NCBI GenBank assembly: GCA_964016885.1
Contig: OZ024762.1
Location: forward strand, 5,580,001 to 5,644,000
DNA from: Eledone cirrhosa
Taxonomy: Eukaryota
Direction: 5' to 3'
DNA: 64,000 bases
In this document: positions 9,169 through 60,261 of the stretch, one piece after another
How positions within the stretch are numbered: position 1 is the first letter of the stretch
Layout of the letters: every line of letters begins with the position of its first letter
The notes under the pieces: generated by a model
Told to the model about the DNA's origin: nothing
The model's database searches: none
The model's input: only the letters and a program-made list of their open reading frames with translations
Program-made: the position numbers and the translations under genes

Positions 9169-9735
9169 TTTCCTGCCGTGACCATCCTGTGTTTATATGA
9201 TTATCAAGGTACCCACATCTACATCGTTGAATGCGCCTTTCATTGTTTTAAATTAGATATTCAGATTACAGGGAGGTGTGGGATGGAATTAATTCTTTTA
9301 TTTATTTACTTATATCAAACAACAAACACGGTGGCAAGGAGTAAATTAAAAAACTCGCCTTTCTTTTAAAATAAAATTCAAGCCTAAGCTCTCCCATGAT
9401 GCAACGGGGCAAGTAAATGATTTGGCGATTTAGCGACATCAGTTCCTAAAATTTCACCAGGACGAAATCTCAAGAACGATAACTCCGTCTTTACTTAATC
9501 GCAAAAATGGGTTCAAAAATTATTTCGAAACAACACTTGCTATGGACGAAAACGACAATATTAAAAGGATTTTGTGGATTTTTAATAGGTGAACACATCA
9601 TTATATATATATATATATATACATACATGTATATATACATACATGTATATATATATATACATGTATATATATATATACATGTATATATATATATACATGT
9701 ATATATATAAATACATGTATATATATAAATACATG

Positions 9736-11313: not shown

Positions 11314-11533
11314 GTATATGTGTATATATATATATACATGTATATATATGGATATATATATATATATATCTATAAATGTATATATATATATATATATATA
11401 ATTGTTTCTACTTTAGGCACAAGGCCAGCAATTACCCCAGTGCATTACTGGTACTTTATTTTATCGACCCCGTAAGGATGAAAGGCAAAGTCAACCTCGG
11501 CGGGATATATATTTTGATATATATATACACATC

Positions 11534-11571
<38 letters not shown>

Positions 11572-12552
11572 GATGTGTTCACCTATTAAAAATCCACAAA
11601 ATACTTTTAATATTGTCGTTTTCGTCCATAGCAAGTGTTGTTTCGAAATAATTTTTGCACCCATTTTTGCGATTAAGTAAAGACAGAGTTATCGTTCTTG
11701 AGATTTCCTCCTGGTGAAATTTTAGGAACTGATGTCGCTAAATCGTCAACTTATTTACCTGCCCCGTTGCATCATGGGAAAGGTTAGCGTTGATTTTTTT
11801 TAAAATAAAAAGGCGAGTTTTTTAATTTACTCCTTGCCACCGTGTTTGTTGTTTGATATAAGTAAATAAATAAAAGAATTAATTCCATCCCACACCTCCC
11901 TGTAATCTGAATATCTAATTACCATGAAGTCGGGAGGGGTTAATGTAAACAAAGGGCAATATGTAATCGCTACACCGGCCTCATAATAATTACTATTGTT
12001 CTCCTATTTTTCTTCAAAGTGATTTCGCTTCTTTATTTCATAGAATCATGGCTAATTAATTTAAAACCACTCACTGACGATCTCCGGCCTCTCACCCTCA
12101 GATGTTCTGTCTTCTACAACCCCTTTTAAAACAATGAAAGGTGTATTCAACGATGTAGATGTGCGTACCTTGATAATCATATAAACACAGGATGGTCACG
12201 GCATGAATACCATCGATTACACACATGTCGGGTCATCTTGTCTTGCTCGTTCAAGACCTGTGAATAAAAGTAAACAACAGCAACACGTCTCTACGTCTAC
12301 GCTCGACTTGCTAGAAATAGAAGCCAGGTTTCCTAAGAATTACGGAGGTGAATTAGCTGTGACACATGTAAATACAAATTTTTATATTTTATCTGTGTAG
12401 GAAGATATTAACAATGTTTTTACTTTTGATTATGTATATGTAAATATATGTCTTGATCGCTCAGGTCTGACTTGTCAATGAAAGTAAACAACAGCTACCT
12501 TATGAAATTTTCACCATTTAAACCCCAACAAAATGCATACAGACATATATAA

Positions 12553-12583
<31 letters not shown>

Positions 12584-13744
12584 CTCGAAATTATATATAT
12601 AGACGCCAAATTTTTACACGGGGGACAAATAGTTCCCATAACCTGAATAGGTCCTCTGAGAACCGACTTATGTATATAGAATCAATGAGATTCCAGCGTT
12701 GACCAATATGTGTATATATGACTATCTAAAACTACATCTTCTAATGTGTCCTTCATTATTTTAAAACGTGGCGAGCGATAAATATTTGGCTGCTATTTCC
12801 AGCAATAATTCTAATGTCACTTTTGTGTGAATATCTAGTAATTAGTATATTCTCTTCTAAATCTTTCTTATTTGTTGCGGCTTGTTTAAGACGTCAGCCC
12901 CCGTCGGGCTTGACCCAGCAGAAGTACGAGGGACTGATGCTAGGGCTGGGAAATCTTGCATGAATTAATTTCAAGCCTTCTTATTAATAACTGCATTGTT
13001 TCTTTCCAAGTAAACTGACATCTGACTGTTGAAAGAGGACTTCAAATGTAATTAGTAATGACCTCTTGAAAATGGACAACATTTGGCATCGTGGTATTTG
13101 GCTCTGGTCCACAATTATTGTCTCTACTCCTGCAAATTATACCTCTACTACAATGGTCTCTGCTCCTCCCCAGCCCCTAAATATGCTGTTCCTTCTCTAC
13201 CTCTACTACAATGCTCTCTGCTCCTCCCCAACCCTAAATATGCTGTTCCCTCTCTACGTCTACTACAGTGGTCTCTGCTTCTCCCCAGCCCCTAAATATG
13301 CCGTTCCCTCTGCCTATTCTATCTCTACTACTATAGTCCCTGCTCCTCAGAGGTTGCTGGTCTCCACTGAAACACTCATCAGTTATGTTGAAAGCCTCTG
13401 GTCTATATAGTCACTACATTGAAGACATCCAACTCTGTTTTCTTCAAACCCACCATAACTTAATTCCTATGCTGCTGTAGCTGAAACAATGGTTAGGTTT
13501 TTCACTCACCATCGATACCTTTCCATCCTGTTCTAAGTTACCCTTACCAGTGTCTGTGGAGTCCATTGCACTACCAATCTTCCTCCTTCACACGACAATC
13601 ACCTTCTGTTATTTTTCCCCTTTCAAAAAACCTACAACCATAAGAAACTCCTTGTCCACAGTTCCTGAAAAAGTTTTGGGATAAAAGAACTGGTGTAAAC
13701 CTCCTTTGAGGTTAGTGTATATATATAGAGAGAGACAGAGAAAG

Positions 13745-14265: not shown

Positions 14266-15935
14266 TGTATATATATATATTATAAGAATGTTCTGTACTA
14301 TGGCCATATATTGTTTCCTTTATTTAAGTGTTGTGTTTGCACCACCTTAATCCATAAACTTTGGTGTAAGCAGGATTAAGCACTCTATGTATCCAACAAT
14401 GGTATTGGATTGCTTATAACACATTGAAGTATCAGTGTATATATATGTTTTTTTTTTTTTGTCCCTTTCATTTCATAAAACCAAATACCTAGTTAGCTAC
14501 AACTACACTGTACTAAACACACTATATATATACTATTTATGATGATGTCCAAGGATGATTCAAGTTAGCATTAGTTACATTCTAGAAATATCCCATATTG
14601 CTCAATGCACACTCTGAAGGTTTACTTTTGTCTTCCTCACATGAAACAGAACTATCAGAATTCATTCCTTTTCACCGATCAATCAACAACATCATAAAGT
14701 TGTACATGAGTTGGCAGTGAATTTTGGTTGCTCCACCAAGTCCTATGATAATGAACCTAACCACAATATCTCGCAGTTCTAGCATCACTCCTTCAAAGCC
14801 AGCCTATGAGCTTTTCAGCTGATCCTCTTTTGTAGAGAAGAATGTTTATATAAATGTAGCTTTGTGTGTCTGACTAGAGAAGATTTAGTTGTGTTTATTT
14901 GACAAGGTAAGTATTTATATATAACTGTATCTATGTGTAAGTCTAGAGTAGGTTTTATTTCTTAGAAGAGGTATATATAAATGTAGCTTTATATGTTATG
15001 TGTGTGTAGAGAGAAGATGTTTTGTTTATTAGACAAAGTAAGTATGTATATATGAATGTAACAGAATGCCTTCAGTTCTCTGAATTAAAATCCTGCTGAG
15101 GTCAACTTTGCCTTTCATCCATTTGAGGTTGATAAAACAAAGTACCAGTCTAGTATTGAGGTTGATTCTTCTGTTTCTCTGGAAGAAATCTGCTGTATTC
15201 AGACCTGGAGAGGAGATGGGTCTGCCAGGTTTTAAAAAGTGCCCTAGAAATACTGTATGTCAATGTGTGGCTTAGGAGTTGCAGGTCCAAGCATACATGT
15301 AATTCTCACAGTTTGGAAGTTCTGCATTCATCACATTGCTCCAGTATTCACAGCCGAGGAGTTAGTCCTGTGGTAGACCAGCGTACTATCCAGGGAGAGT
15401 CTTGTACTCTCAGACACTTAACACCAAGCAAATTGATCATAAGCTGAGAATAGTCTTTATATATTATACTAAATTTAGGTCTAATCACATATCGATGAAA
15501 GAAATCATGGTCTTAAGATGCTTATTACCAAAATAGATAATTAGTGATTGATACTAATTACTAAGATCGATGGTTTGCATTTTTTATTTTCTGTATTAAC
15601 ATAAACATTACTATCTTGAAGTAAATATACTTATTGTTCTGTATATATATATGTATTAAATACTAGTAGTTTAAACTTGTTACATATAGAAACGGGATGA
15701 AAGTAAGGTAACACGGTCGTGAAAAAGTAATTTCTTTCTGAAAATATTTCGGAGACGAAGTATAATATTGATAATTATTGGGTAGAGATCTCAACTCTCA
15801 CCATACGAAATATATTCAGAAAGAGATATTTCTCCACGCCCTCAGTTATCTCGTCTTCATTCCGTTTCTATATATATGTTTTTTAATAAATAAAATTCTA
15901 ACTATAAGTATGACTAATTTACTCAGTAGAGTTGC

Positions 15936-16082
15936 GCTCTGTGCATGGCGCTGAACGTAACGTTTCGGGCTTTGCTGTCGTACTTCGGTATGGCATGACC
16001 ATTCTAAGTGTCTGAAGATCGAATCGTTGCGGGGGCAGCCCGGCTTTATGCTGGCCTGCGTCCCCGCCTCGCATTGAGTTTT
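15936..16082 (+). ncRNA. Putative novel structured RNA, copy 1
   Basis: TATAAG at 15903; tgtcgtac-TTCG-gtatggca hairpin; gcagcccggc-tttat-gctggcctgc hairpin; 5'/3' closing stem; TTTT end. Confidence 0.6.
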
Positions 16083-17549
16083 ACTAAAAAATTCGCCGAG
16101 GGTTATCGTTTGAATTACTTGCCCCTGATTGGAACTATTCTCGTTTGTTGTCATTTTTCTTTATTGAATTGAACTGTTAACATCGTTTGGATTTACTCGT
16201 GTAATTTGATAGAATTAGTCTGGATATTATACTAATGGGGAGAGGTATGTAATGTTTTATTTGCCGTATATACACTCACAGACATACATTATTCTATATG
16301 CCTTTCATCCTTATGGGGTCGATAAAATAAAGTACCAGTAATACACTGGATAATTGCTGGACTTGTGCCAAAAGTAGAAACAATTATTCTATATACAGAA
16401 AGATTCTAGAGACGTACATATTGTTTTATTTAAACCTAAATACACACACAAAACTAGATTTATATATATAAATGTTCTTGAACTGAGGTAAAATACCCTC
16501 TAATTTACCTATACGAACGCTTTATTTGCCATGTATATTTTAATTCATTGCTAAACACTCGAAAATACAGTCTTAGATATATATTAACATTCTTTAGTGT
16601 ATGCATTCACCTCTATAATCCATACACTGGAAGAAACGTTTCCTATCTAGATCAATATACACATATAAAGCTACATTTATATATACACCTTCATTCTTCT
16701 AAAGAGGTATGTAATGTTTTAGTTGTCCCTTAAATTCATCGATAAACACGTAGTTATTCCTGAGACACAAGAATATATTTCACTACCTTTCATATACAGG
16801 AGGAATGTTAGAGACGTATATGTATAATGTAACCGTCTTTTTACTAAGAATAATAACTAAAACCCCTTCATACTCTGGAAAACTAAACATTCTGTCTACA
16901 TACACCGCCTTCTGTCTTATTCATAGTGGTACATTGTTAGAACTAACTAAGCCTTCTCTCGACACTATCATTGCATATTTTAAGAGCCACTTCTTAATAT
17001 ACTATATTTAGGTTTAATCAATACATATATTGATGATTGGAATCATGATCTTAAGATTACCCAAATCGATACTAACTATTACAAATACAGAGCTGTCTAA
17101 GGCTATGTTACCTACATATTAATTGTTCTGAAAAGATGCATCAGTCATCTCCTCTATGGAGCAGAAACGTGGCCCCTCACAAAGACGATTGACAGCAGAG
17201 CCCTGAGGACGATCTAAAACATCAGATGGGACCACCTCAGCCTTACTCTCGTTCAACGCAGTAGCACCTGGTCGGCTCTACCCATGACGATGCCGGTCTA
17301 GTCTAACAAGAATAGATGTACAAAATACTCGAATATAAGGTGACCCTCCTCCCTATCTTATGTCTGAGAAGTGGGCAAAAATGCGAACCTTATTTACGTA
17401 GAATTTGAAGTTGGCGAAAATGGTCAAACTATTGACTCCCTATATACGTCAACCCGTTTCTACATATTCCCTGGCTTCTATTCGTGTATATCCCGTTATA
17501 TATGTACAAAACACTAGCAGTTCCTTAATGGTTATATTTATATAGAAAG

Positions 17550-17615
17550 AGAAACGGAAAGAAAGCGAGATAACACTCGGAATATGTCGTGTTATCTCGC
17601 TTTCTTTCCGTTTCT
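17550..17615. promoter_or_regulatory. Perfect 27 bp inverted repeat with 12 nt loop upstream of copy 2
   Basis: agaaacggaaagaaagcgagataacac-tcggaatatgtc-gtgttatctcgctttctttccgtttct; function unknown. Confidence 0.6.
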
Positions 17616-17679
17616 TTTTTTTTTAAAAACGAAGGAAAATGTTAGCTATAAGTATGACTATTTGACTCGGTAGAATTGC

Positions 17680-17842
17680 GGCTTGTGCGTGGCGCTGCAC
17701 GTAGCGTTTCTGGCTTCGATGTCGTACTTCGGTATGGCATGACCACTCGATCGTGTCTGAAGTTCGAATCGTTGCGGGGTCGGCCGGGACCACAGCAGGC
17801 TGGCTTTATGCTGGCCTGCTCTCCCGCCTCGCATGAGTTTTT
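17680..17842 (+). ncRNA. Putative novel structured RNA, copy 2
   Basis: TATAAG at 17647; closing stem ggcttgtgcgtggcg/cgcctcgcatgagtt; C(UUCG)G hairpin 17719-17740; 11 bp hairpin 17794-17820; TTTTT end. Confidence 0.65.
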
Positions 17843-19924
17843 GCCAAACAATTTGACGAGAGTTATCTCCCTTTGATTTGAGTTATTTGCCCTTTGTTTA
17901 CATTGAACTACTTCCGGTTTGTGGAACTCTTCTTCCTTTGTTGTCATTTCTTTTCAGTGTATTGAAGCTGTAACATTATTCTATTTACTCTGGGACTATT
18001 AACGATATCTGTTTGGATTTTACGTTCGTGTAAAGAGGTATGTAAAGTTTTATTCGCACTCACGGATATTATTGAGACACAAAAATACATTTCACTATCT
18101 TGGAAATATACATACATTTAATTCTTCAATATAAATACATTCTTGTAGTGTTTTAGTTGCCATGTCTTTTAAATTTATTCTAAACACTCTTCACAGAACT
18201 AAACCTCCTTCCGAGAAACAAAACAAATAATATATCTAACTAAACATACATGTTACTTCCCTCTATCATGAAGCATCCTCTAATCTTCTGTAGATACTCT
18301 AGATACTATACCATCGTAATTTCTACGTCGAGTTACATCGGCATCACCACCTTTACTCCAACTCAGCATCCTCTCTTGCACACTTCATATCCCTTTTTAA
18401 CATCTCTATTACACATACACCTTCTCTGTATATTAGTGAGACACAAAAATACATACATTCTTGTAATATTTTAGTTGCCATGTCTTCTAATTTTATTCTA
18501 AACACTCACATATAGCTACATTTATATATACAAACACTCTTCCTATTTAAACGTATATATTTTGAGAATCATAACTAAAACGCCTCCGGAGAAACAAAAC
18601 TAAATATATACACGCAGCTACCTCTTCTAACTAAACATACATGTTACTCTCCTTTATTATGAAACAAAACTAAACATGATCTGTATATATACACACACAC
18701 ACAGCTTCCTCTTCTAACATGTTACAACTAAATTCATATATAAACGGTCTCCCTTCTATCATAACAGATACTTATGAGGCGCAATATACAAACTTGTTCA
18801 TACTGGAATAATAGACACGAAACTAAACCTTCTCTAGACATATTAATATAGAAGCTAAACCATACAGTTATATCTAACGAAGCATGGTAGCTCCATTACT
18901 CTGCCGTAAGACTCACTACTACTACTTCTAGCATCCTCACCTGCTTGATAGCTACATCATCCACATATAAACGTTCTTCACTAGATACAAAACTAAATCT
19001 TTATATATACACAACTAACCTATTCTATATTCCTAAGGAACAGCACCAGACCTGGAGACTACTACAACCCTATCTCAAGAAGAAAGGTAAATAAATTGTG
19101 AAATAAAAGAATAAACCAGTATTTTCCTTTGTTGCCTTATTATTTACTCCCTGTATATACACACACTAGACACCTCTTACACTGTAGGAAGACAAAAACC
19201 TTCTGTCACTGTATACTAGATTCATATTATATAAATAAATCCCCTCTATACAGGAGAAATGTTATTGCCTAGATACACACCTATTAGAAACAAGCCATCT
19301 CTATATACAGGTAAATAACATCAATGTAGACATGTCTGTATATAAGAAAATATCTAAACCCACATTGTGTGTGTGTCTCTTTATGAACATCATACATATA
19401 TAAGATAAGAGGTTTTGATCTGTACATACATATCAATACATCCTCGCTAGATACTACACATACGTCTCTTAGGAAACTACTACTATTGTTCTTCTAGTTG
19501 TTTATAAGGATCTCACAGTAGAATGTGTACATGCTTCCTAAGAAGCAAGAGAGCTAACTGTATAAATACAAAGAAATTTAGTGTTCTTTACATTCAATGA
19601 CACACAAAGCGTACTTCATGTCTATAAAATACCTTCTTCTCTATATTGGAAGAAGTACCTCATTATATATTGAAGTTGTGTTCAATAGAGTACAGTATGT
19701 AGAACCCTATGTACACAGTTACCCTTTTCTTGAAAGGATACATCAATACCCTGTTCTCCTCTAGACAGGCATACTCACCATATAAACACTTTTGTGTATA
19801 TAAAGCATATCTTCATTGTAAATTTAGAAGTTACACTACACAGATATAAAGACAACAACCTACAGACATATTAATACCCTTATATCTCTAGACTACTGTA
19901 TTATATAAATATAGCTAAGGAGTT

Positions 19925-22128
19925 AGACATATATATACGTATGTATGTGTATATGCACATACGTATGTATAATCATGCATACGTATGTATACATATACAT
20001 GCGTATGTGTATTTATACATACGTATGTGTATATACACATACGTATGTGTATATACACATACGTATGTATATATATACATACATATGTGTATATACACAT
20101 ACGTATGTGTATATATATATACGTATGTGTATATGCACATACGTATGTATATATACACATACGTATGTGTATATACACATACGTATGTGTATATACACAT
20201 ACGTATGTATATAAACATACGCATGTATATGTATACATACGTATGCATAAATATACATACGTATGTGTATATACACATACGTATGTATATTTATGCATAC
20301 GTATGTGTATTTATGCATACGTATGTGTATATACACATACGTATGTGTATATACACATACGTATGTATATATACACACGTATGCATATGTATCCATACGT
20401 ATGTATATATACATATACGTATGTGTATATACACATACGTATGTATATATACATACGTATGTGTATATACATACGTATGTATATATATACATACGTATGT
20501 ATATATATACATACGTATGTGTATATACACATACGTATGTATATATACACATACGTATGTGTATATATACATACGTATGTGTATATACACATACGTATGT
20601 ATATATACACACGTATGTATATATACACATACGTATGTGTATATATACATACGTATGTGTATATATACATACGTATGTGTATATACACATACGTATGTAT
20701 ATATACACATACGTATGTATATATACACACGTATGTATATATACACATACGTATGTGTATATACACATACGTATGTATATATATACATACGTATGTATAT
20801 ATATACATACGTATGTGTATATGCACATACGTATGTGTGTATATACATACGCATGTATATGTATACATACGTATGTGTATATACACATACGTATGTATAT
20901 ATACACATACGTATGTATATATATACATACGCATGTATATATACATACGTATGTGTATATACACATACGTATGTATATATACACATACGTATGTATATAT
21001 ACACATACGCATGTATATATACATACGTATGTGTATATACACATACGTATGTATATATATACATACGTATGTATATATACACACGTATGTATATATACAC
21101 ATACGTATGTGTATATACACATACGTATGTGTATATACACATACGTATGTATATATATACATACGTATGTGTATATGCACATACGTATGTATATATACAC
21201 ATACGTATGTGTATATACATACGCATGTATATGTATACATACGTATGCATAAATATACATACGTATGTGTATATACACATACGTATGTATATATACACAT
21301 ACGCATGTATATATACATACGTATGTGTATATACACATACGTATGTATATATATACACATACGTATGTGTATATACACATACGTATGTATATATATACAC
21401 ATACGTATGTGTATATATACATACGTATGTATATATACATACGTATGTGTATATATACACATACGTATGTGTATATATATACATACGTATGTGTATATAC
21501 ACATACGTATGTATATATACATGCGTACGTATGTATATATACATACGTGTGTGTGTATACATACATACGTATGTGTATATATACATACGTATGCGTATAT
21601 ACACATACGTATGCATAAATACACATACGTATGCATATATACACATACGTATGCGTATATATACATACGTATGCGTATATACACATACGTATGTATATAT
21701 ACATACGCATGTGTATATACACATACGTATGTATATATACACATACATATGTGTATATACACATACGTATGCATTATACATACATACGTATGCATAAATA
21801 TACATACGTATGTTTATATACATGCGTATGTATATACATACACATGTATATGTATACATACATGTTTATAATATACATACGTGTATGTATATATATACAC
21901 ACGTACGTGTATATATACATACGTATGTATATGTATACATACGTATGCATAAATATACATACGTATGTATATACATACATATGTATATACATACATATGT
22001 ATATATATACATACACACATACGTATGTATGTATATATATACATATGTATATATAGATACATATGTATATATATATACACATATGTATGTATATCTATAT
22101 ACATATATGTGTGTATATATATGTATGT
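19925..22128. repeat. ~20 bp self-complementary satellite (acatacgtatgtgtatatac)n
   Basis: About 100 units containing palindromes acatacgtatgt and gtgtatatacac. Confidence 0.95.
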
Positions 22129-24337
22129 TTATATAAATATAGCTAAGGAGTTGAACTTTTTTCTCTAGATAATATAAGTATGTGTATTCTATAGGATACT
22201 ATTACCTTAAAACCATGTGTATATATATATATACACTTACTTCTATAGAATCCATACATCTTAACACCCTTCTATCTCTAGGCATATGTATACATACAGA
22301 AAGAAATGGCCTCACTAGAATACTGCATTAGATACATTTCTTTCATGAAAGATGTTTCGAACTGAGTTCATACTTCTATTCCTATATACATACTGGGAGA
22401 GATATAGAATACAAATTTATTCTATATACAGAAGGAAATAAACTTACTAGAATACTGTCTATATACACATTATAAATGTTTATAATATGAAACTTCTTTA
22501 TTAATACCTCTATTCCTATATACTTACTGGTAAGTATGAGAGAGGTATATATAGATATTATAACCTCTTACAGGAGATATAGAATACCTATATACACAGC
22601 AAGAAATAAACTTGCTAGGATTACTGTATTATATATATATACAGTTTCCATTCTCAAAGAAACTTTTCTATAGCACCACACTTACCTCTTTCAGTAAGAA
22701 GGATGTTTCTTACTGGGATTCTATAGTGTACATACACATTAATTAATCTATTCTATATATACACTTCTTTCAAGAAGGATGTTTCTCACTAATTACATAA
22801 ATATATACAGTATCTAAATACATATATTATGAGTGGAAGTTAAACGATCTACATGTAAGATACTACCTGTGTATATATATAATAAAAAAACAATGTTCTA
22901 TAGGATATACTTACTTCTAAGTGAAATAAAGATCAATAAATAAACTACATTTTGTTGTTGGAGTTATTTTATTTCTTGAGACGACTGTGTGTATTTACAC
23001 ACTCAGGTGAGCTGGCGGAGATCTTCAACATACCTGGAAAGAAACAGAATATATTAATAAAAACAATCCAGATTACACAGCTCTAACACCAATAATTGTC
23101 TGGATGCAGAAATCAAACCTCTTTATCCTGAACAGTTTAGTTTCTTAGGAGAGTGGGTATAGGGCTGTGAAATACAGTTTCTTATACGCCTCTAGATGAG
23201 GTATTACTGTATTTATAATATAATATATGTTTTTTTATTATTATTGAGAAGGATAATAAATATATAAGCCTTCTAGATGTTACAGAGAAGTCTCTACATA
23301 CAAACAGTAGATTCTTTGCTGTGTACACACAATATCTAGTAGTAAGTTTCTGTGTATTATATACACACGTGTGTACAATGTTTGTATAACAAGGGTGTGT
23401 ATTCTATGGAATACCATATCTATAGGAAACTATGTATGTGTAATATAATACATGGGGAGTTTTTTTCTATTGAGAAGGATACTGAATATAATGTCTTCTA
23501 GATGTTAGGGGAATCTCTACGTACAAAAAATAGATGCCTTGATTAAAATATCCAGAGTTTTATGTAAGTATCCTCGGGAAAAGTAGTAGAGAAGAGGGTT
23601 TTAACTTTGCCTTGTGTGTATATAGATGCTGCATATATACAATACTTCGAAGTGTGTTTATGTATAGAGAGAGGGTCTGTATTCTATATACTACAGTTTC
23701 TTATATAGCTCCGGATACTGTGTATAATGAGGAGATATACCTTTCTTCTAAGTAAGTATATACAGAGAAGGTGTAATAGAGATACGATTATAATATAAAT
23801 ATATAGTTGATATGATGTGTGCAAGAGAGAATGCTGAGTTGGAGTAAAGGTGGTGATGCCGAGGTAACTCGACGTAGAAATTACGATGGTATAAGGTATA
23901 GAGAGGAAAGTAGCATGTATGTTTAGTTAGAAGAGGTAGCTGCGTGTATATATTATTTGTTTTGTTTCTCGGAAGGTTTAGTTCTGTGAAGAGTGTTTAG
24001 AATACATTTAAAAGACATGGCAACTAAAACACTACAAGAATGTATTTATATTGAAGAATTAAATGTATGTATATTTCCAAGATAGTGAAATGTATTTTTG
24101 TGTCTCAATAATATCCGTGAGTGCAAATAAAACTTTACATACCTCTTTACACGAACGTAAAATCCAAACAGATATCGTTAATAGTCCCAGAGTAAGTAGA
24201 ATAATGTTACAGCTTCAATACACTGAAAAGAAATGACAACAAAGGAAGAAGAGTTCCACAAACCGGAAGTAGTTCAATGTAAACAAAGGGCAAATAACTC
24301 AAATCAAAGGGAGATAACTCTCGTCAAATTGTTTGGC

Positions 24338-24500
24338 AAAAACTCATGCGAGGCGGGAGAGCAGGCCAGCATAAAGCCAGCCTGCTGTGGTCCCGGCCGA
24401 CCCCGCAACGATTCGAACTTCAGACACGATCGAGTGGTCATGCCATACCGAAGTACGACATCGAAGCCAGAAACGCTACGTGCAGCGCCACGCACAAGCC
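24338..24500 (-). ncRNA. Putative novel structured RNA, copy 3 (no differences seen from copy 2)
   Basis: Reverse complement of 17680-17842; TATAAG at 24533-24528. Confidence 0.65.
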
Positions 24501-24564
24501 GCAATTCTACCGAGTCAAATAGTCATACTTATAGCTAACATTTTCCTTCGTTTTTAAAAAAAAA

Positions 24565-24630
24565 AGAAACGGAAAGAAAGCGAGATAACACGACATATTC
24601 CGAGTGTTATCTCGCTTTCTTTCCGTTTCT
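24565..24630. promoter_or_regulatory. Perfect 27 bp inverted repeat upstream of copy 3
   Basis: Same as 17550-17615. Confidence 0.6.
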
Positions 24631-26124
24631 CTCTATATATAAATATAACGGGATATATAGCCATTAAGGAACTACTAGTATTTAGTACATATATAACGGG
24701 ATATACACGAATAGAAGCCAGGGAATATGTAGTAAGGGGTTGACTTATATAGGGAGTCAATAGTTTTGTAGCAAGGACCATTTTCGCCAACTTCAAATTC
24801 TACGTAAATAAAGTTCGCATTTTTGCCCACTTCTTAGACATAAGATAGGGAGGAGGGTTACCTTATATTCGAGTATTTTGTACATCTAGACCGACATCAT
24901 CATGGGTAGAGCCTACCAGGTGCTACTGTGTTTAACGAGCGTAAGGCTGTGGGCTGATGATTTAGGTGGTCCTCAGGACTCTGCTGTCAATCGACTTTGT
25001 GTGGGGCCACGTTTCTGCTCCATAGAGGAGAAGACTGATGCATCTTTTCAGAACAATTAATATGTAGGTAACATAGCCTTAGAGAGATCTGTATTTGTAA
25101 TAGTTAGTATCGATTTGGGTAATCTTAAGACCATGATTCCAATCATCAACATATGTATTGATTAAACCTAAATATAGTATATATAAAGTCTGTTCTCAGC
25201 TTCTCACCAGTTTCTTTGGAATTAAGTGTCTGAGAGTATAAGACTCTCCCTGGATAGGACACTAGTCTATCGCAGGATTAACTCCTCAGCTGAGTGTACT
25301 GATGAAACGTTTTTAAAGACTTACATACAGAACTTCCAAGCTGTGAGAGTTATATGTATGGACCCGTAACTCCCGAGGGAGTCATAGAGGCAACGCATTG
25401 ACATACAGTGTTTCTAGGGCTCTTTTTAAAACCTGGCAGAGCCCAGGTCTGAATACAGCGGATTTCTTCTAGAGAAGTGTAGAGGAAGAATTCACCCCAG
25501 TACTAGACTGGTACTTTTTTTTATTAACCTTGAATGGATGAAAGGCAAAGTTGGCCTTGATGGGATTTGAATTCAGACAGCTGAAATGAAGGCATTCTAT
25601 CTGTTACATTTATATATACATACTTTCTTTGTCTAATAAACAAAACTAAATCTTCTCTTTGTCTAATAAACAAAACTAAATCTTCTCTAGACACACACAT
25701 AAAGTTACACTTATATAAACCTTCTTTTGTACAAACAAGGGTCAACTGAAAAGCTCATAGGCTGACTATGAAGGAGTGATGCTAGAACAGTGAAATCTTG
25801 CATGCATTAATTTCAACTCTCCTTACTAATAACTGCATTGTTTCTTTCCATTTGGTCAGTCAGCCCTCTTACGTATATACTTCTGATTCTCTTTTTTACT
25901 AAGAAACAGAATTAAACCTTCTCTACACAGGAAAATATTACTGACATCTTCAAAGGAATGTAAATAAACTTCCTTATCTAGCGACGAACATGTGAAATAA
26001 ACCAAACTTTTGCTTTTTCATTTCTTCTAAGAAACGAGACAGCTAATGCCAATAAGTGTGTATACAAAAAAAATGTCTACACACTTCAGGAAAAGAAAAA
26101 TTTGTATAAATATATATATTTAGC

Positions 26125-26483
26125 ACCCATCCACCATCTGAGTGAATCTCTTGGTCAGTGTCCAAGTCTCAGACCCGTACAGCAATACAGATGAATCTTC
26201 AGGTCTTTACGAAGGTCCAACCTCAAACTGTGACACGCCACCCAGTCTTTGCTCCAATGCTGGATGGGAGCTACACGAGAATGCTGAGGATGGCTCTGAA
26301 CATTAATCAGTATGAACTGAGGATGAAGAGCTCTGAGCTGTACAGGAGCCTCTCGAAAGTAACACAGAGGAAATTGAGGTTAGCTGGACATGCTCACTGA
26401 TATTCAGTGTTGATACTGCACTCAGTGGTCCTGTGGGAGCCCCTCCACGGACACACTAGAAGAGGGAATTTTACCCACCCTAG
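26125..26483. mobile_element. Rearranged LINE fragment, same family as 44660-45275
   Basis: DGSYTRMLRMALNINQY...RKLRLAGHAH. Confidence 0.75.
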
Positions 26484-26864
26484 ATAGATATATACATACA
26501 AAAGATGAATTTCCATGTTGAGATATCTTGATTCAAGAAATGTATTATTGAATATATGTATCTTTTCCTGAAGTGTGTATACAATTTATTGGCGGATTCT
26601 ATATATACAAACAAAAGAGTAACCTTTCAGCAACCAATATACTTTATGAAACATTTCAGCAAATGGCCTTGGAGTGAAACGACTGGAGATCAGGAACTTC
26701 GAGACTGGTTGCATCCATAGGGTCCTTTCGCCCCCTAAGTATTCACTGACTATGGTTCAGCTGGCCGTAGAGGATCTTACAAGACGTTTACACCCTTAAA
26801 CTTGCCTCACCTACCAAATATTCTTCTGTCCTGTGTATACACAATTGATGGACAAATATACTTG

Positions 26865-26918
<54 letters not shown>

Positions 26919-27808
26919 CAAAACGACCCATGCTAGCGTGGTAGAAACTATGGGACATTGCCCAGGGTGTAGGAGATGCTATGTGAAGTATATGACCTAA
27001 AACTGCTTCTTTCACTCTCTAAGCTTATGATGACCAGGGCTTAGTTGGCCACAGGAGATACTATGGCACATACATACCCTAAGCCGAAGCAAAAAAAAAA
27101 CAACCTAACGTTTAAATAATTATTTCTAACATTATGGAGGGAAATATACAGAACATGTTTCAATAACTGATCAATCTAAAATTGGTAAAATCCAAGTGTT
27201 TAACGTTTTTTATTCACACACGTGTGCGAGAAATGAAGCTGCCGTGCTTCGTTGTGAAAGAAATGGAGAAGAAAAAAATACAACTGTAGCTATACATATT
27301 TTGTTTCTTAATAAAAAATAGGAAAGGTATTTTCCTGCATAGAGAAGGTTAATATATTTTTCGTAGTAGAAAGTAAATAGCTTTATATGTATGTCTCTAA
27401 AAAGAGAAGATAGTAAAACGTATTGTTGACAAGGTTTACAATGTCTTCAATAAAGAAAGATAGCTGATACACAGAATGTGTTTTATAGAGAAATTTGAGT
27501 TATAGTTCTTAGAAATCTATATAGTGTCGAGATGGCTTAGTTTTGTTTCTTTACAAGAAGTAACACTATTCGTATGAGTAGTTTTTTGGCTTAAAAGAAA
27601 TCGTGTGTCAGAAAGCCACGGTAAATAAAACATGTGTATATAGAAAAGGTTTAGTTTCATTACCTCGTTATAGGAAAACGATTTTCTTTCAAAGAACCGG
27701 AAGTGAATTGAAAGAAAAATAAAAAGAATTCCATAACGGGGAAGTAACTCTAAATAAACGGAGATAACTCAAATCAAATTTAGAGAGAAGGGGGTTAGAC
27801 GGATTCCT

Positions 27809-27962
27809 AACTCGGTCCAGGACATCAGGTTAGCATATAGCTAGCCTACAAATAAGGCCGCGTGCCACTGCAACGATTCGATCTTCAGACACATAGAATG
27901 GTCACGCCATACTTAAGTAGGCGACGAAGTCCGAACTGCTACGGGCATCGTCACGCGAAGCT
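27809..27962 (-). ncRNA. Putative novel structured RNA, copy 4 (most diverged)
   Basis: TATAAG at 27995-27990; conserved GTATGGCGTGACCA and GTGTCTGAAGATCGAATCGTTGC blocks; compensatory stems; no T4 end. Confidence 0.5.
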
Positions 27963-30049
27963 ACAATACTACTCAGTAAATTAGTCATACTTATATACAA
28001 AATTTTATTTATTTTGTCAAAAAAATATATATAGAAACGGAAAGAAAGTAAAGTAACACGCTTCAAAATATATTCCGTGTGTTATCTCATTCTCATTCCG
28101 TTTCTATAGATAAATTAATTTAGAAACTGCTAGTATTTTGTACATATATACAGAACAATTAATATGGAAATAAATATTCTTATTTCAAGATGCTATATCT
28201 CTCACCATACTTTGATGTAATTTCCGTCTACCAATGTGAGCCAAGGTGGCGCACTGAGGAATTTAATCTAGAGCCACATAGTTGTAACTCCTTAACCACA
28301 CTATTTCTAGATGATCGTTTCAAGTCTTCACCAGAACCTAACAATTTCTTTAAAACAATTTTGATCCCTAAAGAATAAAAATATAATCTTGGATGCTGGC
28401 AAACACAAACAGCCATTTTGTTCAATCTCACCACACAACTCCTTATAAGACCCTCCCCCCGCCCCCTCACATAACTCGCTACACACCACAAGGCACAAGG
28501 CCCCCTCCCCATTAGAAGACCACAATATTATATAAATTTAATTTCTTTAATCATCATTAAGAAACCATCATCATCACTATTTTACGTTTATTTTCCAAGC
28601 TTACATGGGTTTGACACGTTCTGGTCAGGTCTTAGCATAGTTTCTATGGCTCGATGCCCTTCCTAATGTCAACTACTTTACACTGTGTACAAGGAGCATT
28701 GTATCATGGCACAACCACCTTGCAGGGTAGACTGAGTGGTTCTTATTGTGATGACACCATTAATCAACCTACTTTGTTCAAATTTTACACTACGCTAGAT
28801 CTGATTAAAGTGGCTTTACATTTTGGATTTTTTGTTCAGGAACGGCGTGGCAGCCGTTTAAATATTCGAAAATACCACCTTTTCGCTCAAATTTCCGCCT
28901 TATCGTCTCTAGCTCCCACATTTTTCAACCGATTTCGTTCAAACTATAAAAACATGGTGAAATATGTAAAGGACATTTCCTGTAGGTTTTTAATTTCCTC
29001 TGATATTTTATCTTTTTCTTTGCCTACTTCTTCCTGAGAGGTTCATGACAGCAGAGTCCTCAAACATTCCTTCCAACATATCCTGTCAGAAGCAACCGCC
29101 TCAAACTGATCTGGGTGGATCCCCAAGGGGGACCAGCCAAGCTCATGGATATTATCTGACCATCTTGCTGAAATAACCCAGTGTGTTACTGGTACTTTAT
29201 TTTATTGACCCCATAAAGATAAAAGGTAAAACTAATCTTAGCGCGATTCAAGGATGAAATTTTTTTTTTTACTTACGCTTCTGTTTTATTTTAATACATA
29301 TAATTCTCAGTTTAGCAGATCGCTTGGCAAGACGAGATGAGTTTACAGACATCGTTTAAGAAATCCTAGCAACCCTCCTAAGAAGTATATTCTTATATAT
29401 ATAAAGTAAAAGTAGGATTTGACTCTTCAATCTAGTAATTATATTTACTGTCTCTCAAACCTTGTTGAGAAATAACAACACAGTGTAGATAAAGTAATCT
29501 GTGAATGATAAACAAGACAGGAAGAAAGAAATGTGTACAAAGTGATTGATGGTGATTGTTTATTGGTATAAACATAAATAACAACAATGAAATAAACAAT
29601 AGGACAAACAAGAAAGAACAGGCAAAATCAAACTTTTGTGTGTAACAGTTGTTCAAATATTTTGGTGCTACAAACTGAAATTATTATCAGATGAAAGTTT
29701 AATTTTGAATGAAGGTAAAAAGTGGATTTTTTTTTATGATGACATGTTTACTTCATGTTTTTTTTTAGTAATTATTGTCATGAAAGTAATTAATTAGAAA
29801 TTTATTTTACACATCAGATTAAAAACAAATAAAAAATTTGAAAAACATTTTTAACCCTTTTCTTTCCTTATTAAATGAAATTGTCCCTGCTTCTACGATA
29901 AAAAGTTGTTTTTTTTTCAATATTTTTATATTAAACCAGGTTTTTACGAATTTTACCATAATTCTACATAAGAACAAACACCTAATTAACAATGACAAAT
30001 AATTATCACATTACTAAGGCCCTCTTAATTCTTAATCACATTTATAATC

Positions 30050-35354: not shown

Positions 35355-35745
35355 GGAGGCACGTAGCTTAGTGGTTAGAGCATTGGCCTTGCAATCGAAA
35401 GGTTGTGAGTTCAATTCTCAGACCAGGTGATGTGTTGTTTCCTTGAGCAAGACACTTTATTTCACATTGCTCCAGTTTACTCAGCTGTAGAAATGAGATG
35501 ATAGGGACCCCAGTCCCTATCATTCCACTGCAAAGTGGTTGTGGAGGTGCCACGGCAAAAAAGCACCCAGCACTCACTGTAGAGTGGTCGTGGAGGTGCC
35601 ACGGCAAAAAAAGCACCCAGCACTCACTGTAAATGAGGTTGGTGTTAGGAAGGGCATCCAGCTGTAGAAATCAAGCCAGAATCAGTTCCCGTCCCACCCT
35701 TGCAAGCAGGGAAAAGCGGACGTAAAAAAAAAAAAAAAAAAAAAA
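35355..35745 (+). mobile_element. Full-length SINE family B
   Basis: TAGCTTAGTGG A-box, GAGTTCAATTC B-box, CORE-like block, RTE-type tail, poly(A). Confidence 0.88.
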
Positions 35746-36293
35746 ATGCATATGTATATTTCTGTATATAATATATATACATAATTCAAAGTATAAGATG
35801 TATATGTATATATATAGAGAAAGCCATATATTGTTACAGCTTTTCTACAGAGAAACATAATTATCATATATATTATATATCTTATGATACCTGAACTCAG
35901 TATATATACATATATTTCTGTGTACATATACATATATATATTTCTGTATACACATATATATATTATTATTATGTAATAAACAACATAAGGCAATTATTCC
36001 ATTTACCAGTGGTTTCTTAAAAGCAAAAGGTTTTGCTTTCAATCCTCAGAACGGAAAAATCCTGGTTTGTTTATTGAATTTGGATTATGTTGTTTATTAC
36101 ATAATAATAATAATTAAGCTCTGTTGCCTACATAGAGCACTCTTTTTTCCTGGACTTTTCCGATGGAATTACTTCATTTACACATATATATATATATATA
36201 TATATGAAAAATTATATTTAAAATTGTTGGGTTACAACGAGTAAATATTTATAACTGATATAAAAGCACTCGACAAATATTTGGAGTATATTT

Positions 36294-52367: not shown

Positions 52368-54717
52368 TTAGGCATCAGTTATATCTTCTTCTGGCAGCTT
52401 TATTATTGGAATATCTTGAATGGGGACCGGCTGAGATGATTCACTGTTTTTACTCTCAGGTTTCTCAGCCTCTTCACTCCATTCAACAGCAGTTGGTTTC
52501 TCTTCTGTAGAATACTCCTCTTCGATACTATCTTGTGGGGACATTCGTCGCACTGAGCTTGCACTACTGTCACTACCCAGGCTAGCACTGCGAGTACTCG
52601 GACTTAGACGGTCGTGTCGGTGCACTTCATAAAATGACGGGTCGGTATGCTTCCTTGTGAGGCGGTGACGGGGATGTGTTCTAGGTGATCGGCGCGCACT
52701 GACGCCTCCTTCCATTTTAGGGTCTTGTCTGAGAAACTGGTTGAAGATTTCATTGGACTTCTCGTCTATGCTGTAATCTCGGGATAGTGACCGGTCTTTG
52801 TGTTCCCTCTGTTGGGCCCGAAAGAAACGGGTAAAGACTGACAGTTTTCCAGACAAGGAATTATCTTCAAAGCTGTCTCCTGATGGTTGGTCAGATTTCG
52901 AATCCGTTTCCGGTTCATTGATGCTGTCGTAGACTTGAACAACTTGTCGTTCCCGACTGTATTCTCGTCTTTTCTTCGAAGCGGTCTTACCATTCCGACG
53001 GTCGAAATGGGAATTCCCTGCCGTTTTCTTATGTTTCTTGACCGGGGTTTCAGGAGTCGAGCCTTGGAATGAAGGTGTAGGTACGGCTGGCTCTGAGAAA
53101 GATGCCGTCACCAAAGGAAGGGTGGATTGTTTGATTGGAGTCTTTGCACCGACACAACTTTCAATGTCCATGTTGCAGGAGGAATTTCCGGGTGAGGTGC
53201 CTGGGGAAGTGCCAGCAGGGGAATGTCCCGGTGAGTGTCCTGGAGAGTGTCCGGGTGATCTTCTGAAGGAGCTATTCTGTGAAGGAATTGTTGTTTCTAA
53301 TGATTTATATCCACTGTCTGCTTTCATTTGTCGCAGTTTACTGGTTTGGCTCTCTGTAGTGCTGTCCGTATTGTCAGTGGTTGATTCAAATGATGTGGTT
53401 GTCACCTCATGTCTGCTTGTATCGGACACCTCGCCATCTGTGTCTACAGTGTCCACACTATCGAAGCTGTTGTCCCCACTTGCTACCGGTTGATTTGGCC
53501 TCTGAAGTCTTCGGTGTAAGATATCTTTGTATGATTGGCGCCTACTTTCATAATTTGGATGGAGAAGGTTACTGGAGTGACGTTGAAGTTCTAACAGGAA
53601 TCTCTCTTCTCTTCGAGTGTAAGTGACGGGGCTGGAGCTGGTCTGCTGAGCCACAGGTTCGGTATTTGATTCAAATGAAGTCGTGTTTGAAGCTCCATGT
53701 CCCACATCTGGTGACTGATCAGCTGAATTGTCTTCCATTCGAATTGTATCGCTACAATCCCCTTCTTCTTCTTCCAGCGTAGCCCTCAGATTCCACAATT
53801 CCTTGTACCTCTGGCTACCATTCAACGTTTCCGTCTCATCACTCTCGTTCGACACAATGCCTGCATGATCAAAATCAAGGTGTCTGTCGTCCAGCTGTTC
53901 TAAGCTTCCAGTGTCGTTGTAACGTACCTTTGGTGAACCGACATCCGACGCTAGATCGTAATCAGTGTTGTGAAAGGGACCTCGGGTGAACTCCGTTATC
54001 TTCAGGGTGTCATAATCGGTCGTGTCGTCATAAACCTGCAGGCTGCTGCTGTCGGGGAGTTGCCACGTTTTAATCGGGCTCACCGTGTCCAAGCTGTGTG
54101 ACTGCGAACCCTTGGAGGAAGTGGACCCCATGGTGGCCAAAGTGGCGTTGTTGTTGGTGGTGGTGGACAAGGTGAGAGGTGGCAGCGGAGGTGGAGGCGT
54201 CGGCGACGGTAGTGGCAGTGGTGATGGTAGCGGCAGCGCCGTTGGTGACGACGATGACGAAGACGATGAGGATGGAAGCGGCAGCGCTGACGCCACCGCC
54301 GCTGCTGCTGACGCTGCTGCTCTCGTTGCCGCCGACGACGGGGGCAGGGGCGGGGGTGGAGGCGGCGGAGGCGGCGAACTCTTGCCGTTCCCTTGGCAAC
54401 AATGTTCGGTCGTCGTGTTATCGTTTTGTTGACAATGGACTTCAACCAAGATCTCTGTTTGGGTCGGCTTGTTTGTCGGAGAAGGGGATTCTTCGATGCA
54501 CTGCTGCCGAGACAAACTGAGAGTTGACGGCATCAGGAAACCATAGACACATTTGCCGTCTAAACTTCCCGAACTTTTACACACAAATTTGTTAGCGTCG
54601 GCACCATCTTCATTGTTCACACTGTTGCGGGAACCCAGCGACAGATGCTTGCAAAACGGCACATTGAACTTCTCAACTTTCAGAGTTTTTAAGTAATGAA
54701 AATCACCTTCTGTATAT
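52368..54717 (-). CDS. CBARP: Terminal exon, CBARP/BARP-like (calcium channel beta-subunit-associated regulatory protein-like)
   Basis: tttgtacag acceptor at 54718-54720, 2.35 kb open frame; YKELWNLRATLE and RDYSIDEKSNEIFNQFLRQDP resemble vertebrate CBARP motifs as I recall them (not searched). Confidence 0.75.
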
Positions 54718-54778
54718 CTGTACAAAGGAGAGAACAAAAAAAGTAGATTAATAGGTAAAATATATATTTTATATATAA

Positions 54779-55149
54779 TAATTGTTTCTACTTTAGGCAC
54801 AAGGCCAGCAATTACCCAGTACATTACTGGTACTTTATTTTATCAACCCCTGTAAGGATGAAAGCCAAAGTTAACCTCGGCTGGTAAAGGCCGTAACTCT
54901 ATGCGTCAGAGCATGGCGTCCGACCTTCTACCGATACTGCCAATCCACAGGCCTTTTAATAATTGTTTCTACTTTAGGCACAAGGCCAGCAATTACCCAG
55001 TGCATTACTGGTACTTTATTTTATTGACCCCGTAAGGATGAAAGGCAAAGTCAACCTCGGCTGGATTTGAACTCAGATCGTAAAAGGACGTAACTCTATG
55101 CTGAAAAGCATGGCGTCCAACCCTCTACCGATACTGCCAATTCACCACC

Positions 55150-59305: not shown

Positions 59306-60261
59306 TTGAGTAAACAGCAGAGTCTTTTGAGAGAATATCTTGAATTTTAATCGAGATATTCTCAAGAGGAAACCTACAAATTTTCAATTATGGCTTCTCT
59401 GCTGTTCTCAACATGAAAATAGACATCAAGAAATTAAGAGCTGAGAAAATCCATACAATTCGTGACATGAAAAAAAAACCTTGCTAATACATTATCATGA
59501 CTGAAGTATTAAGTGTGTAAGTCTGTGTATGTTTGTGTGTGTGTATATACGTGTATGTATATGTGTGTGTTTGTGTATGTGTGTGTATGTGTGTATGTAT
59601 ATGTGTGTGTTTGTGTATGTGTGTGTGTATGTGTGTTTGTGTATATATGTGTATATATGTGTATATATGTGTGTGTGTGTGTATACATGTATGTATATGT
59701 GTGTTTGTGTATGTGTGTGCGTGTGTATACATGTATGTATATGTATGTGTATGTATGTTTGTGTATATATGTGTGCATGTTTGTATACGTGTATGTATGT
59801 GTCTGTGTATATGTGTGTGTTTGTGTATCTGAGTGCGTATGTGTGTGGACATATATGATTTTATGTATCCATGTTTCTATGTATTATGTATGTATGTTAA
59901 ACCAGTGGGAGTGAAGGACCCCTAGCCTTTGTCAGGGCATTCTTCTAGGAGAAGGTAACTCAGGAAACTGGGATAACTCCGACATAAAACCTGCGGCTCA
60001 GTAGTTACCGATGATGTTGATCTTTTCTTCTTTTCAGGTCATAGCTACTGTCTCTCAGAGAGTGGGACTGGCTCAGTGCACAGTCTTTCCTCACTTTTAA
60101 AAAAATGTTCATGCACAGGCATTGCACAATAGAATTAATTAATAATGTTATATTGTGCAATGGCAATACTCGATAACGAGGGGGCCAGCCATTATGATGT
60201 GTGTATGTATATGTGTTTATGTATTTTTACATAAATATATGCATATATATGTATATATATA

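Follow-up and report, generated by a model that had tools for sequence, protein, structure and literature searches.

Vault RNAs are products of RNA polymerase III (Pol III), made from genes that combine internal boxes, upstream elements and a TATA box; their 5' and 3' ends pair and they occur as several paralogues, and in the account of PMC7058938 they are predicted in deuterostomes and validated there and in a trypanosome, while the EBER genes of Epstein-Barr virus (EBV) are given a composite Pol III promoter with internal and upstream parts. The snaRs of primates, as described in PMC3045588, are lineage-restricted, structured Pol III RNAs of ~117 nt, derived from Alu/7SL and encoded by ~30 genes that spread chiefly by segmental duplication. 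The Dada DNA transposons presented in PMC3706591 are linked to multicopy small RNA genes: they encode a DDE transposase and insert into U6, U1 or tRNA genes, and terminal inverted repeats are lacking in two of the families, Dada-U6 and Dada-U1. Here we describe a family of repeated units of 150-190 nt, foldable as RNA and likely to be Pol III genes, in a 64,000-nt stretch (hereafter the window) of contig C23 (OZ024762.1) of the 3.0 Gb genome of Eledone cirrhosa, which is TA-rich and has C2H2 zinc-finger arrays, as fits a cephalopod, together with the large DNA element on which the units lie. We propose, with a probability of roughly one half, that the units sit on protein-free inverted-repeat elements which spread by DNA copying, and that the RNA genes serve the element that carries them.

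The motif TATAAGTATGACTA has four exact occurrences in the window, at 15903 and 17647 on the plus strand and at 24533 and 27995 on the minus strand, against 0.13 expected by chance. The bodies of the four copies can be aligned with each other, and a covariance model run on the window matched exactly these four places, at 115-155 bits. An earlier note on this DNA had placed four CpG-rich islands here, and both their positions and their composition were borne out (CpG observed/expected 1.17-1.26 in the bodies of copies 1, 2 and 4 vs 0.57 window-wide). Copies 2 and 3 are identical across the body and both lie within a single 1.4 kb inverted duplication (left arm 16997-18391, plus, containing copy 2; right arm 23809-25182, minus, containing copy 3; arms 91.5% identical), so the window holds three distinct sequences; this pair is one recent inverted duplication. 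The note had described a four-copy family, which understates it: by exact motif matches the genome holds at least 118 copies of type I, the type found in the window, and 60 of a second type.

All copy counts are lower bounds. DNA searches with copies 2, 4 and 1 returned 246, 243 and 237 first-look candidates, 40 of them scored in each search. The type I core pattern has 118 exact genome matches, its reversed-pattern control none, and 94 of the first 100 matches listed lie on contigs C20-C25, with none of these 100 on C1-C7. Type II, a diverged paralogue that first surfaced as weak profile hits within several elements, has 60 exact genome matches to its 5' motif, and its subtypes are contig-bound (nine of nine copies on C25 belong to one subtype, seven of seven on C21 and seven of seven on C27 to the other). 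The type I covariance model picks up six type II copies (E 6.5e-10 to 1.8e-6), and in the tree a long, fully supported branch divides the two types. Many of the scattered copies, copy 4 of the window included, look like decaying relics. The family is real and unannotated, a two-type set of probable structured Pol III RNA genes, with at least about 180 copies on a large element free of open reading frames (ORFs) and built of inverted repeats. The note's idea of a lineage-specific structured RNA family is supported in part: the gene anatomy speaks for it, as do folding biased toward one strand and a diverged paralogue in which the fold is retained, while the scattered, decayed copies and covariation at control level speak against it. 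The dispersal in hundreds of transposon-like copies that the note had named as telling against its idea is partly what we see, some 180-250 copies lying scattered and in part decayed on a DNA element that looks mobile.

The anatomy of the units is that of a Pol III gene. A positioned TATAAG is present in 73 of 79 distinct units, 31 nt ahead of the G that opens the GC-rich body, and since the TATA boxes of the host U6, RNase MRP and tRNA-Sec genes stand at about -28 to -32, the start of a unit can be placed to within ~3 nt. The GWTCGAATC listed in the note matches the B-box consensus, GWTCRANNC, which is present in all four window copies. Downstream, TTTT follows 124-203 nt from the start in 77 of the 79 units, the exceptions being copy 4, with no TTTT within 235 nt of its start, and its twin. 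Each unit is preceded by an inverted repeat with arms of 25-40 nt, kept in type II with arms that have altered in concert and a spacer of 130-180 nt (among six type II copies the arms match at 27-30 of 32 positions in four, at 21 in one and not at all in one). Read as a microRNA precursor, this repeat gave generic sub-threshold hairpin hits only, and its loop ranges from 12 to ~180 nt across subfamilies. In 34 of 73 units its 3' arm, at -110 to -70, contains the motif TTAYYTYSCY, which is seen again past the terminator. Among host genes the motif has a single same-strand occurrence upstream of each of three U6 loci (-265, -271 and -288), one 7SL copy (-244) and one vault-like gene (-187), against a background of two matches in 46 kb of window and none in 19 kb of ribosomal DNA (rDNA) loci, and we read it as a putative Pol III activator site common to the units and the host genes. 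The proximal element TATGCWAATKAG, which stands at about -78 of host U6, MRP and tRNA-Sec, is missing from all four units, and on that account the units do not qualify as type 3 promoter genes of the U6/MRP/tRNA-Sec class. Our data suggests, with good confidence, that the units are transcribed by Pol III from a TATA-plus-B-box promoter. What had escaped the note was the promoter sense of TATAAG and GWTCGAATC, the inverted repeat upstream, the existence of type II as a paralogue and the carrier.

Copy 1 (subtype Ic; predicted RNA of ~150 nt at 15934-16082, plus, start good to 3 nt either way) has its TATA element at 15903-15910, 31 nt ahead of G15934, the B box GATCGAATC at 16017-16025 by pattern scan, a TTTT terminator at 16079-16082 and an upstream inverted repeat at 15681-15876 with outer arms of 32 nt and inner arms of 22 nt. 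Copy 2 (subtype Ib; predicted RNA of ~165 nt at 17678-17842, plus) has TATA at 17647-17654, the B box GTTCGAATC at 17762-17770 and TTTTT at 17838-17842. Its upstream inverted repeat (17537-17628; arms 40 nt, loop 12 nt) bears in each arm the motif TTATCTCGCT (17564-17573, minus; 17592-17601, plus), which is present also upstream of host U6 and 7SL genes, and a further copy of the motif, TTATCTCCCT, stands directly past the terminator at 17863-17872 (plus), as it does at +160 to +220 in many other units. Copy 3, whose predicted RNA at 24338-24502 (minus) equals that of copy 2 in its body, has its B box at 24410-24418, TATA at 24526-24533 and upstream inverted repeat at 24552-24643. The decaying copy 4 (subtype Id; predicted RNA at 27797-27964, minus) retains the B box GATCGAATC at 27875-27883, TATA at 27988-27995 and an upstream inverted repeat at ~28026-28112.

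The predicted RNA of copy 2 has a terminal stem, a long arm tipped by two hairpins and a 3' hairpin; the computed fold (-78.3 kcal/mol, z -4.41, equalled by none of 200 shuffles; opposite strand z -1.33) agrees with the one the note had drawn by hand. Copy 1 reaches z -2.95, and three type II copies reach -5.25, -3.43 and -2.59, each beating its own opposite strand. Copy 4, also counted as structured in the note, reaches only z -0.81, which with its lack of a near terminator does not sustain that description. Across 42 representatives (25 shuffles each) the plus strand folds better in 30, with a median z of -2.25 vs -1.55 for the other strand, and in the paired cells G-U combinations outnumber A-C by 339 to 82. 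Folded independently, types I and II both consist of a long 5' arm and a 3' arm based on GGGAC/GUCCC, joined by a terminal stem; in type I the 5' arm bears at its tip a second hairpin. The UUCG loop stressed by the note is a feature of the subfamilies of copies 1 and 2, most scattered copies having UUAU, UUAA or UUAG at that site.

The units are arranged mostly as facing pairs 3-11 kb apart, two to four to an element, within carriers of 3-18 kb that are ORF-less, modular and often palindromic, with arms up to 97.6% alike across 4.5 kb. Blocks and tandem arrays of 30-87 bp are common to the elements, in shuffled order and often as mirror images, and every larger element inspected has at least one unit, most of them at least two. 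A flanking module, 'A_rep', gave 207 first-look candidates genome-wide and is about as numerous as the RNA unit, which implies that the whole element multiplies. The subfamily represented in the window (C23 type) is ~15-18 kb long in other copies and starts here at 11570, sharply past a (TA)n tract, with ATGATGTGTTCACCTATT; no right end of a carrier copy was seen within the window. Since this terminus is identical beside unrelated (TA)n flanks in seven of eight aligned junctions, the eighth being a 19-nt remnant, and since other copies, such as L033, have it inverted at their right end, it is a terminal inverted repeat of ~1.5 kb (11570-13078, plus). An inverted remnant of the same terminus lies to the left of the element (9251-9601, minus; 92% over 420 nt to 11505-11920, motif at 9582-9601). 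Between the facing copies 2 and 3 there is a central array of ~110 units of 20 bp (19929-22105), and a decayed A_rep module, which in other subfamilies stands ahead of the RNA genes, occupies 26717-27066 (minus). The element also contains a piece of a very abundant short interspersed element (SINE) at 16299-16388. Elsewhere, a 66-bp tandem repeat with several TATGCAAATTAG proximal-element motifs lies just 3' of type IIa genes (L164:600-1070, L166, L169, L127), and a palindromic, GC-rich 75-bp tandem repeat flanked by inverted copies of the motif TTACCTCCCT forms the centre of one palindromic subfamily (L115:4700-5100; also L113, L167, L168, L171, L182).

In the explanation we propose, TFIIIC would bind the internal B box, together with a loose A-box-like TGGCG at +12 to +14, TBP/TFIIIB would assemble on the TATA at about -30, aided by the upstream motif common to host U6 and 7SL, and Pol III would then yield a closed-ended RNA of 150-190 nt. 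The carrier would be a non-autonomous DNA transposon of foldback type, moved in trans and mostly locally, as the restriction of subfamilies to particular contigs suggests; such local movement at the DNA level is the reading we favour for the carrier, with less assurance than Pol III transcription. The RNA genes would be retained since they benefit the element, a step we hold by a slight preponderance. The likeliest way of serving it, put forward tentatively and by analogy, is that of adenovirus VA and EBV EBER RNAs, the transcripts acting as abundant double-stranded decoys for the double-stranded RNA (dsRNA)-sensing or silencing proteins that the element's long palindromes would provoke; next, and more doubtful, comes a Pol III/TFIIIC platform that keeps the chromatin of the element open. 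In its most specific form the idea is that an animal transposon of foldback type has kept, over a long divergence, its own pair of paralogous Pol III RNA genes, whose abundant structured transcripts would be VA/EBER-like decoys against host dsRNA sensing, editing or RNA interference directed at the element's palindromes; this form we regard as unlikely.

Several observations weigh against this explanation. In the promoter, type II copies mostly have a degenerate B box (for instance GTTCTATTC, GTTCGTTTC), and the canonical A box TRGCNNARYNNG has no match, TGGCG standing alone with the usual A missing; judged by eye, the host 7SL and vault-like genes are equally loose at this site. T runs are frequent anyway in this AT-rich DNA. 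The motif TTAYYTYSCY is absent at MRP, is present at tRNA-Sec on the opposite strand only (-442) and has no exact upstream match at copies 1 and 4. Internal deletions and broken pairs are found in many scattered copies. As to the carrier, the terminal motif occurs in only 5 of 184 loci, all of the C23 type, and the ends of the other subfamilies were not found; the known ends lie in (TA)n, where a target-site duplication is unreadable. No transposase or element-specific protein was found among 100 ORFs of the retrieved loci, chosen from 246 by clustering, a genome-wide transposase search not having been made; the Pfam hits on these ORFs were limited to reverse transcriptase, integrase, Pif1, BTB, C2H2, ARGLU and one repeat-driven hit. 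The loci were moreover retrieved by their likeness to the RNA body, so that the apparent extra conservation of the body is partly ascertainment.

Covariation belongs among the same objections. The type I alignment of 36 rows was made from 40 representatives minus L029, L030, L046 and the rearranged L048:7674, with L063 also left out and copy 4 added. Aligned by sequence only, it gave a covariation of 0.109 vs 0.110 in shuffled alignments, equalled by 278 of 500 shuffles, and no covariation measure rose above the shuffles; pairwise double changes, counted over both types, were kept at about the rate expected by chance, and RNAalifold recovered just 13 pairs from the gappy 36 rows. The sole alignment to pass on all measures is one fitted to the model (double changes in 29 pairs vs 18.7 shuffled, reached by 0 of 500 shuffles), and such an alignment is biased toward structure. 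A few clean swaps are seen: in the tetraloop stem 9 of 36 rows have U-A in place of C-G, and in the terminal stem of type II C-G gives way to A-U. The one-sided changes are chiefly C-to-T or G-to-A, as decay would also yield. The stems' covariation, which the note had asserted outright and had made a test of its proposal, is therefore at most suggested, the sequence-only alignments being at control level.

The strongest competitor, which we nonetheless think less probable than not by a clear margin, is that the units are lineage-specific Pol III RNAs serving the host in the manner of snaR or BC1/BC200, amplified by segmental or inverted duplication within chromosomes, with a few functional subfamilies and the rest pseudogenes; what we call an element would then be a duplicon. 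The upstream motif common to U6 and 7SL and the fold kept between types I and II fit such a history, as does the amplification of other Pol III genes in this genome, where we found 25 hits for 7SL (24 of them on C12), 48 for U6 (most in one array on C19) and 11 vault-like genes. Those host clusters, however, are local head-to-tail arrays, whereas the units are dispersed facing pairs; the C23 terminus is precise beside unrelated (TA)n and stands in inverse orientation at the two ends, a pattern not produced by ordinary segmental duplication; and flanking modules match the RNA unit in number.

Alternatively, a foldback or Pack-MULE-like element may on one occasion have picked up an old Pol III gene or SINE-like head and carried it since as a neutral passenger, its structure inherited without selection and the gene possibly silent. 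Covariation at control level, frequent deletions, the decay of copy 4 and a median fold z of only -2.25 vs -1.55 on the other strand are what such a history would leave. Yet the young, high-identity subfamilies (c2, c1, IIa, IIb) retain TATA spacing, terminal stem and T run despite long divergence, the terminal stem is paired in both types though its length and sequence differ, and at least one unit, mostly two or more, is present in every larger element inspected, which together make this reading distinctly improbable. Least credible of all is that the GC-rich fold belongs not to an RNA gene but to the DNA of a Helitron-like or virus-derived element, as a hairpin or Y-shaped terminus or origin for single-stranded replication. 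The palindromes, the tandem arrays at their centre and the nesting of inverted repeats would fit this, as would the resemblance of a long stem tipped by two hairpins to a Y-shaped end. Against it stand strand-biased folding with its excess of G-U over A-C, TATA, B box and T run at Pol III spacing, the lack of viral or Rep ORFs among those scanned, a lone Helitron helicase scrap in 3 of 182 loci and no core-pattern match in either viral or metagenome contigs, on which grounds a Helitron or virus origin was rejected.

Known RNAs were compared with the units as well. In Rfam nothing reached the gathering score and nothing came near at E<=10 for types Ib, Ia and II, so the absence of a match that the note had foreseen held for the window copies. 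A 5.8S ribosomal RNA derivative or rDNA orphon was rejected (p 0.07-0.93 in 12 comparisons with host 5.8S; profile search blank), and for the rDNA places on C4 and C12 there was no core match among the matches listed, the spacer itself not having been read. A 7SL/Alu-derived RNA was rejected likewise (12 comparisons with host 7SL, whole or 5' end, gave p 0.14-0.98), as was a vault RNA, with no RF00006 hit on any copy, a best pairwise p of 0.047 among 12 and a blank model search. When the units were set against the Alu domain of 7SL, U6 and vault RNA together, 0.047 was also the best p of 30 comparisons with host genes and is not significant, and 12 host loci encoding known RNAs gave the type I model at most 8.7 bits, no match. 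The hammerhead core (CUGANGA...GAAA, with helices I-III), sought by motif in every retrieved locus, was found outside the units only, which dismisses a hammerhead retrozyme. The units have a B box, a GC-rich body of ~150-200 nt and numerous decayed copies in common with tRNA-derived SINEs; unlike these, they gave no tRNA when the window was scanned with ARAGORN, and ~250 nt upstream and ~400 nt downstream are common to scattered copies. A SINE was rejected on this account, and because each copy brought along its promoter region and flanking sequence hundreds of bases long, the units would not have spread by RNA retrotransposition. We found no description of this RNA family in the literature, a search that did not cover supplements, Repbase or Dfam, where the carrier may stand as an unclassified repeat.

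The host Pol III genes retrieved for these comparisons deserve mention in their own right. On C3 (221183987-221251257; L157-L162) there are 11 vault-RNA-like genes, scoring 39-43 bits vs the Rfam cut-off of 34, with TATA near -31, a terminal stem and a T run; set against the occurrences given in PMC7058938, the cluster may be a new invertebrate record. The 7SL genes form a tandem array at C12:42.10-42.13 Mb (25 full-length hits, ~1.4 kb period) and the U6 genes one at C19:31.78-31.84 Mb (~1.8 kb period); tRNA-Sec is an inverted pair on C23 and RNase MRP a single hit. The host type 3 promoter (upstream regions of L147-L156, L183 and L184) has TATA at ~-30, TATGCWAATKAG at ~-78 and, in U6, TTAYCTCCCT at ~-270. 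A Pol III promoter grammar is thereby outlined (TATA, a proximal TATGCAAAT-type element and the distal TTAYCTCCCT) that is useful where short hairpin RNAs or guide RNAs are to be expressed.

Other features lie apart from the family. At L120:600-2950 (C23:5204600-5206950, minus) there is a tandem array of at least six ~460 bp units. In each of them a proximal element as in host U6 and a TATA-like box accompany a hammerhead motif of type I whose helix III is very short (Rfam HH9 is hit weakly, at E 0.043). The array resembles the non-LTR (long terminal repeat) retrozymes as PMC7229834 describes them, and differs in the apparent Pol III type 3 promoter of its own. The window itself has one hammerhead-like motif of type I, its helix II long, at 35996-36057 (minus), with a relative in L174, a tRNA-like SINE head barely above the Rfam tRNA cut-off at 35363-35424, an 823-codon proline/serine-rich open frame without Pfam match at 52371-54839 (minus), probably a large exon, and a 918-codon open frame at 60235-62988 (plus) that looks by eye like a long interspersed element.

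If transcribed, the units would constitute a new Pol III structured RNA family of two paralogous classes, absent from Rfam, and a rare case of Pol III genes spread as cargo of a large non-coding DNA element instead of by retrotransposition. The decoy role suggested above, if true, would amount to RNA counter-defence encoded by a transposon, and raises a testable question, whether DNA transposons use small RNAs of their own against host dsRNA defences. Among mobile elements the carrier most resembles the foldback and long-terminal-inverted-repeat transposons of the FB, Galileo and MULE types, with which it shares long inverted arms, internal tandem arrays, a variable modular size, the absence of ORFs and, as far as the C23 subfamily goes, sharp ends at (TA)n; it differs in having Pol III-type RNA genes in its arms, and it yielded no assignment to a superfamily. 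EBER1/2 of EBV and VA-I/II of adenovirus are, like the units, strongly structured RNAs of ~160 nt present as two paralogues on one selfish DNA, an analogy of function only; neither is hit in Rfam, and the carrier has no viral genes. With Dada the association of a DNA transposon and multicopy small RNA genes is shared, except that here the RNA genes are intact cargo within inverted arms. Vault RNA genes offer the same combination of Pol III boxes, TATA, paired ends and paralogues, whereas here a central B box is followed by an extra 3' arm and the genome has a separate vault-like cluster. The snaRs share lineage restriction, structure and duplication, and are set apart by their 7SL origin, no significant 7SL likeness being seen here, where at least about 180 copies have TATA and lie on an element with terminal inverted repeats. 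By the tests made, the units are members of none of these groups, and they appear to be built like vault and EBER genes and to spread at the DNA level like snaRs.

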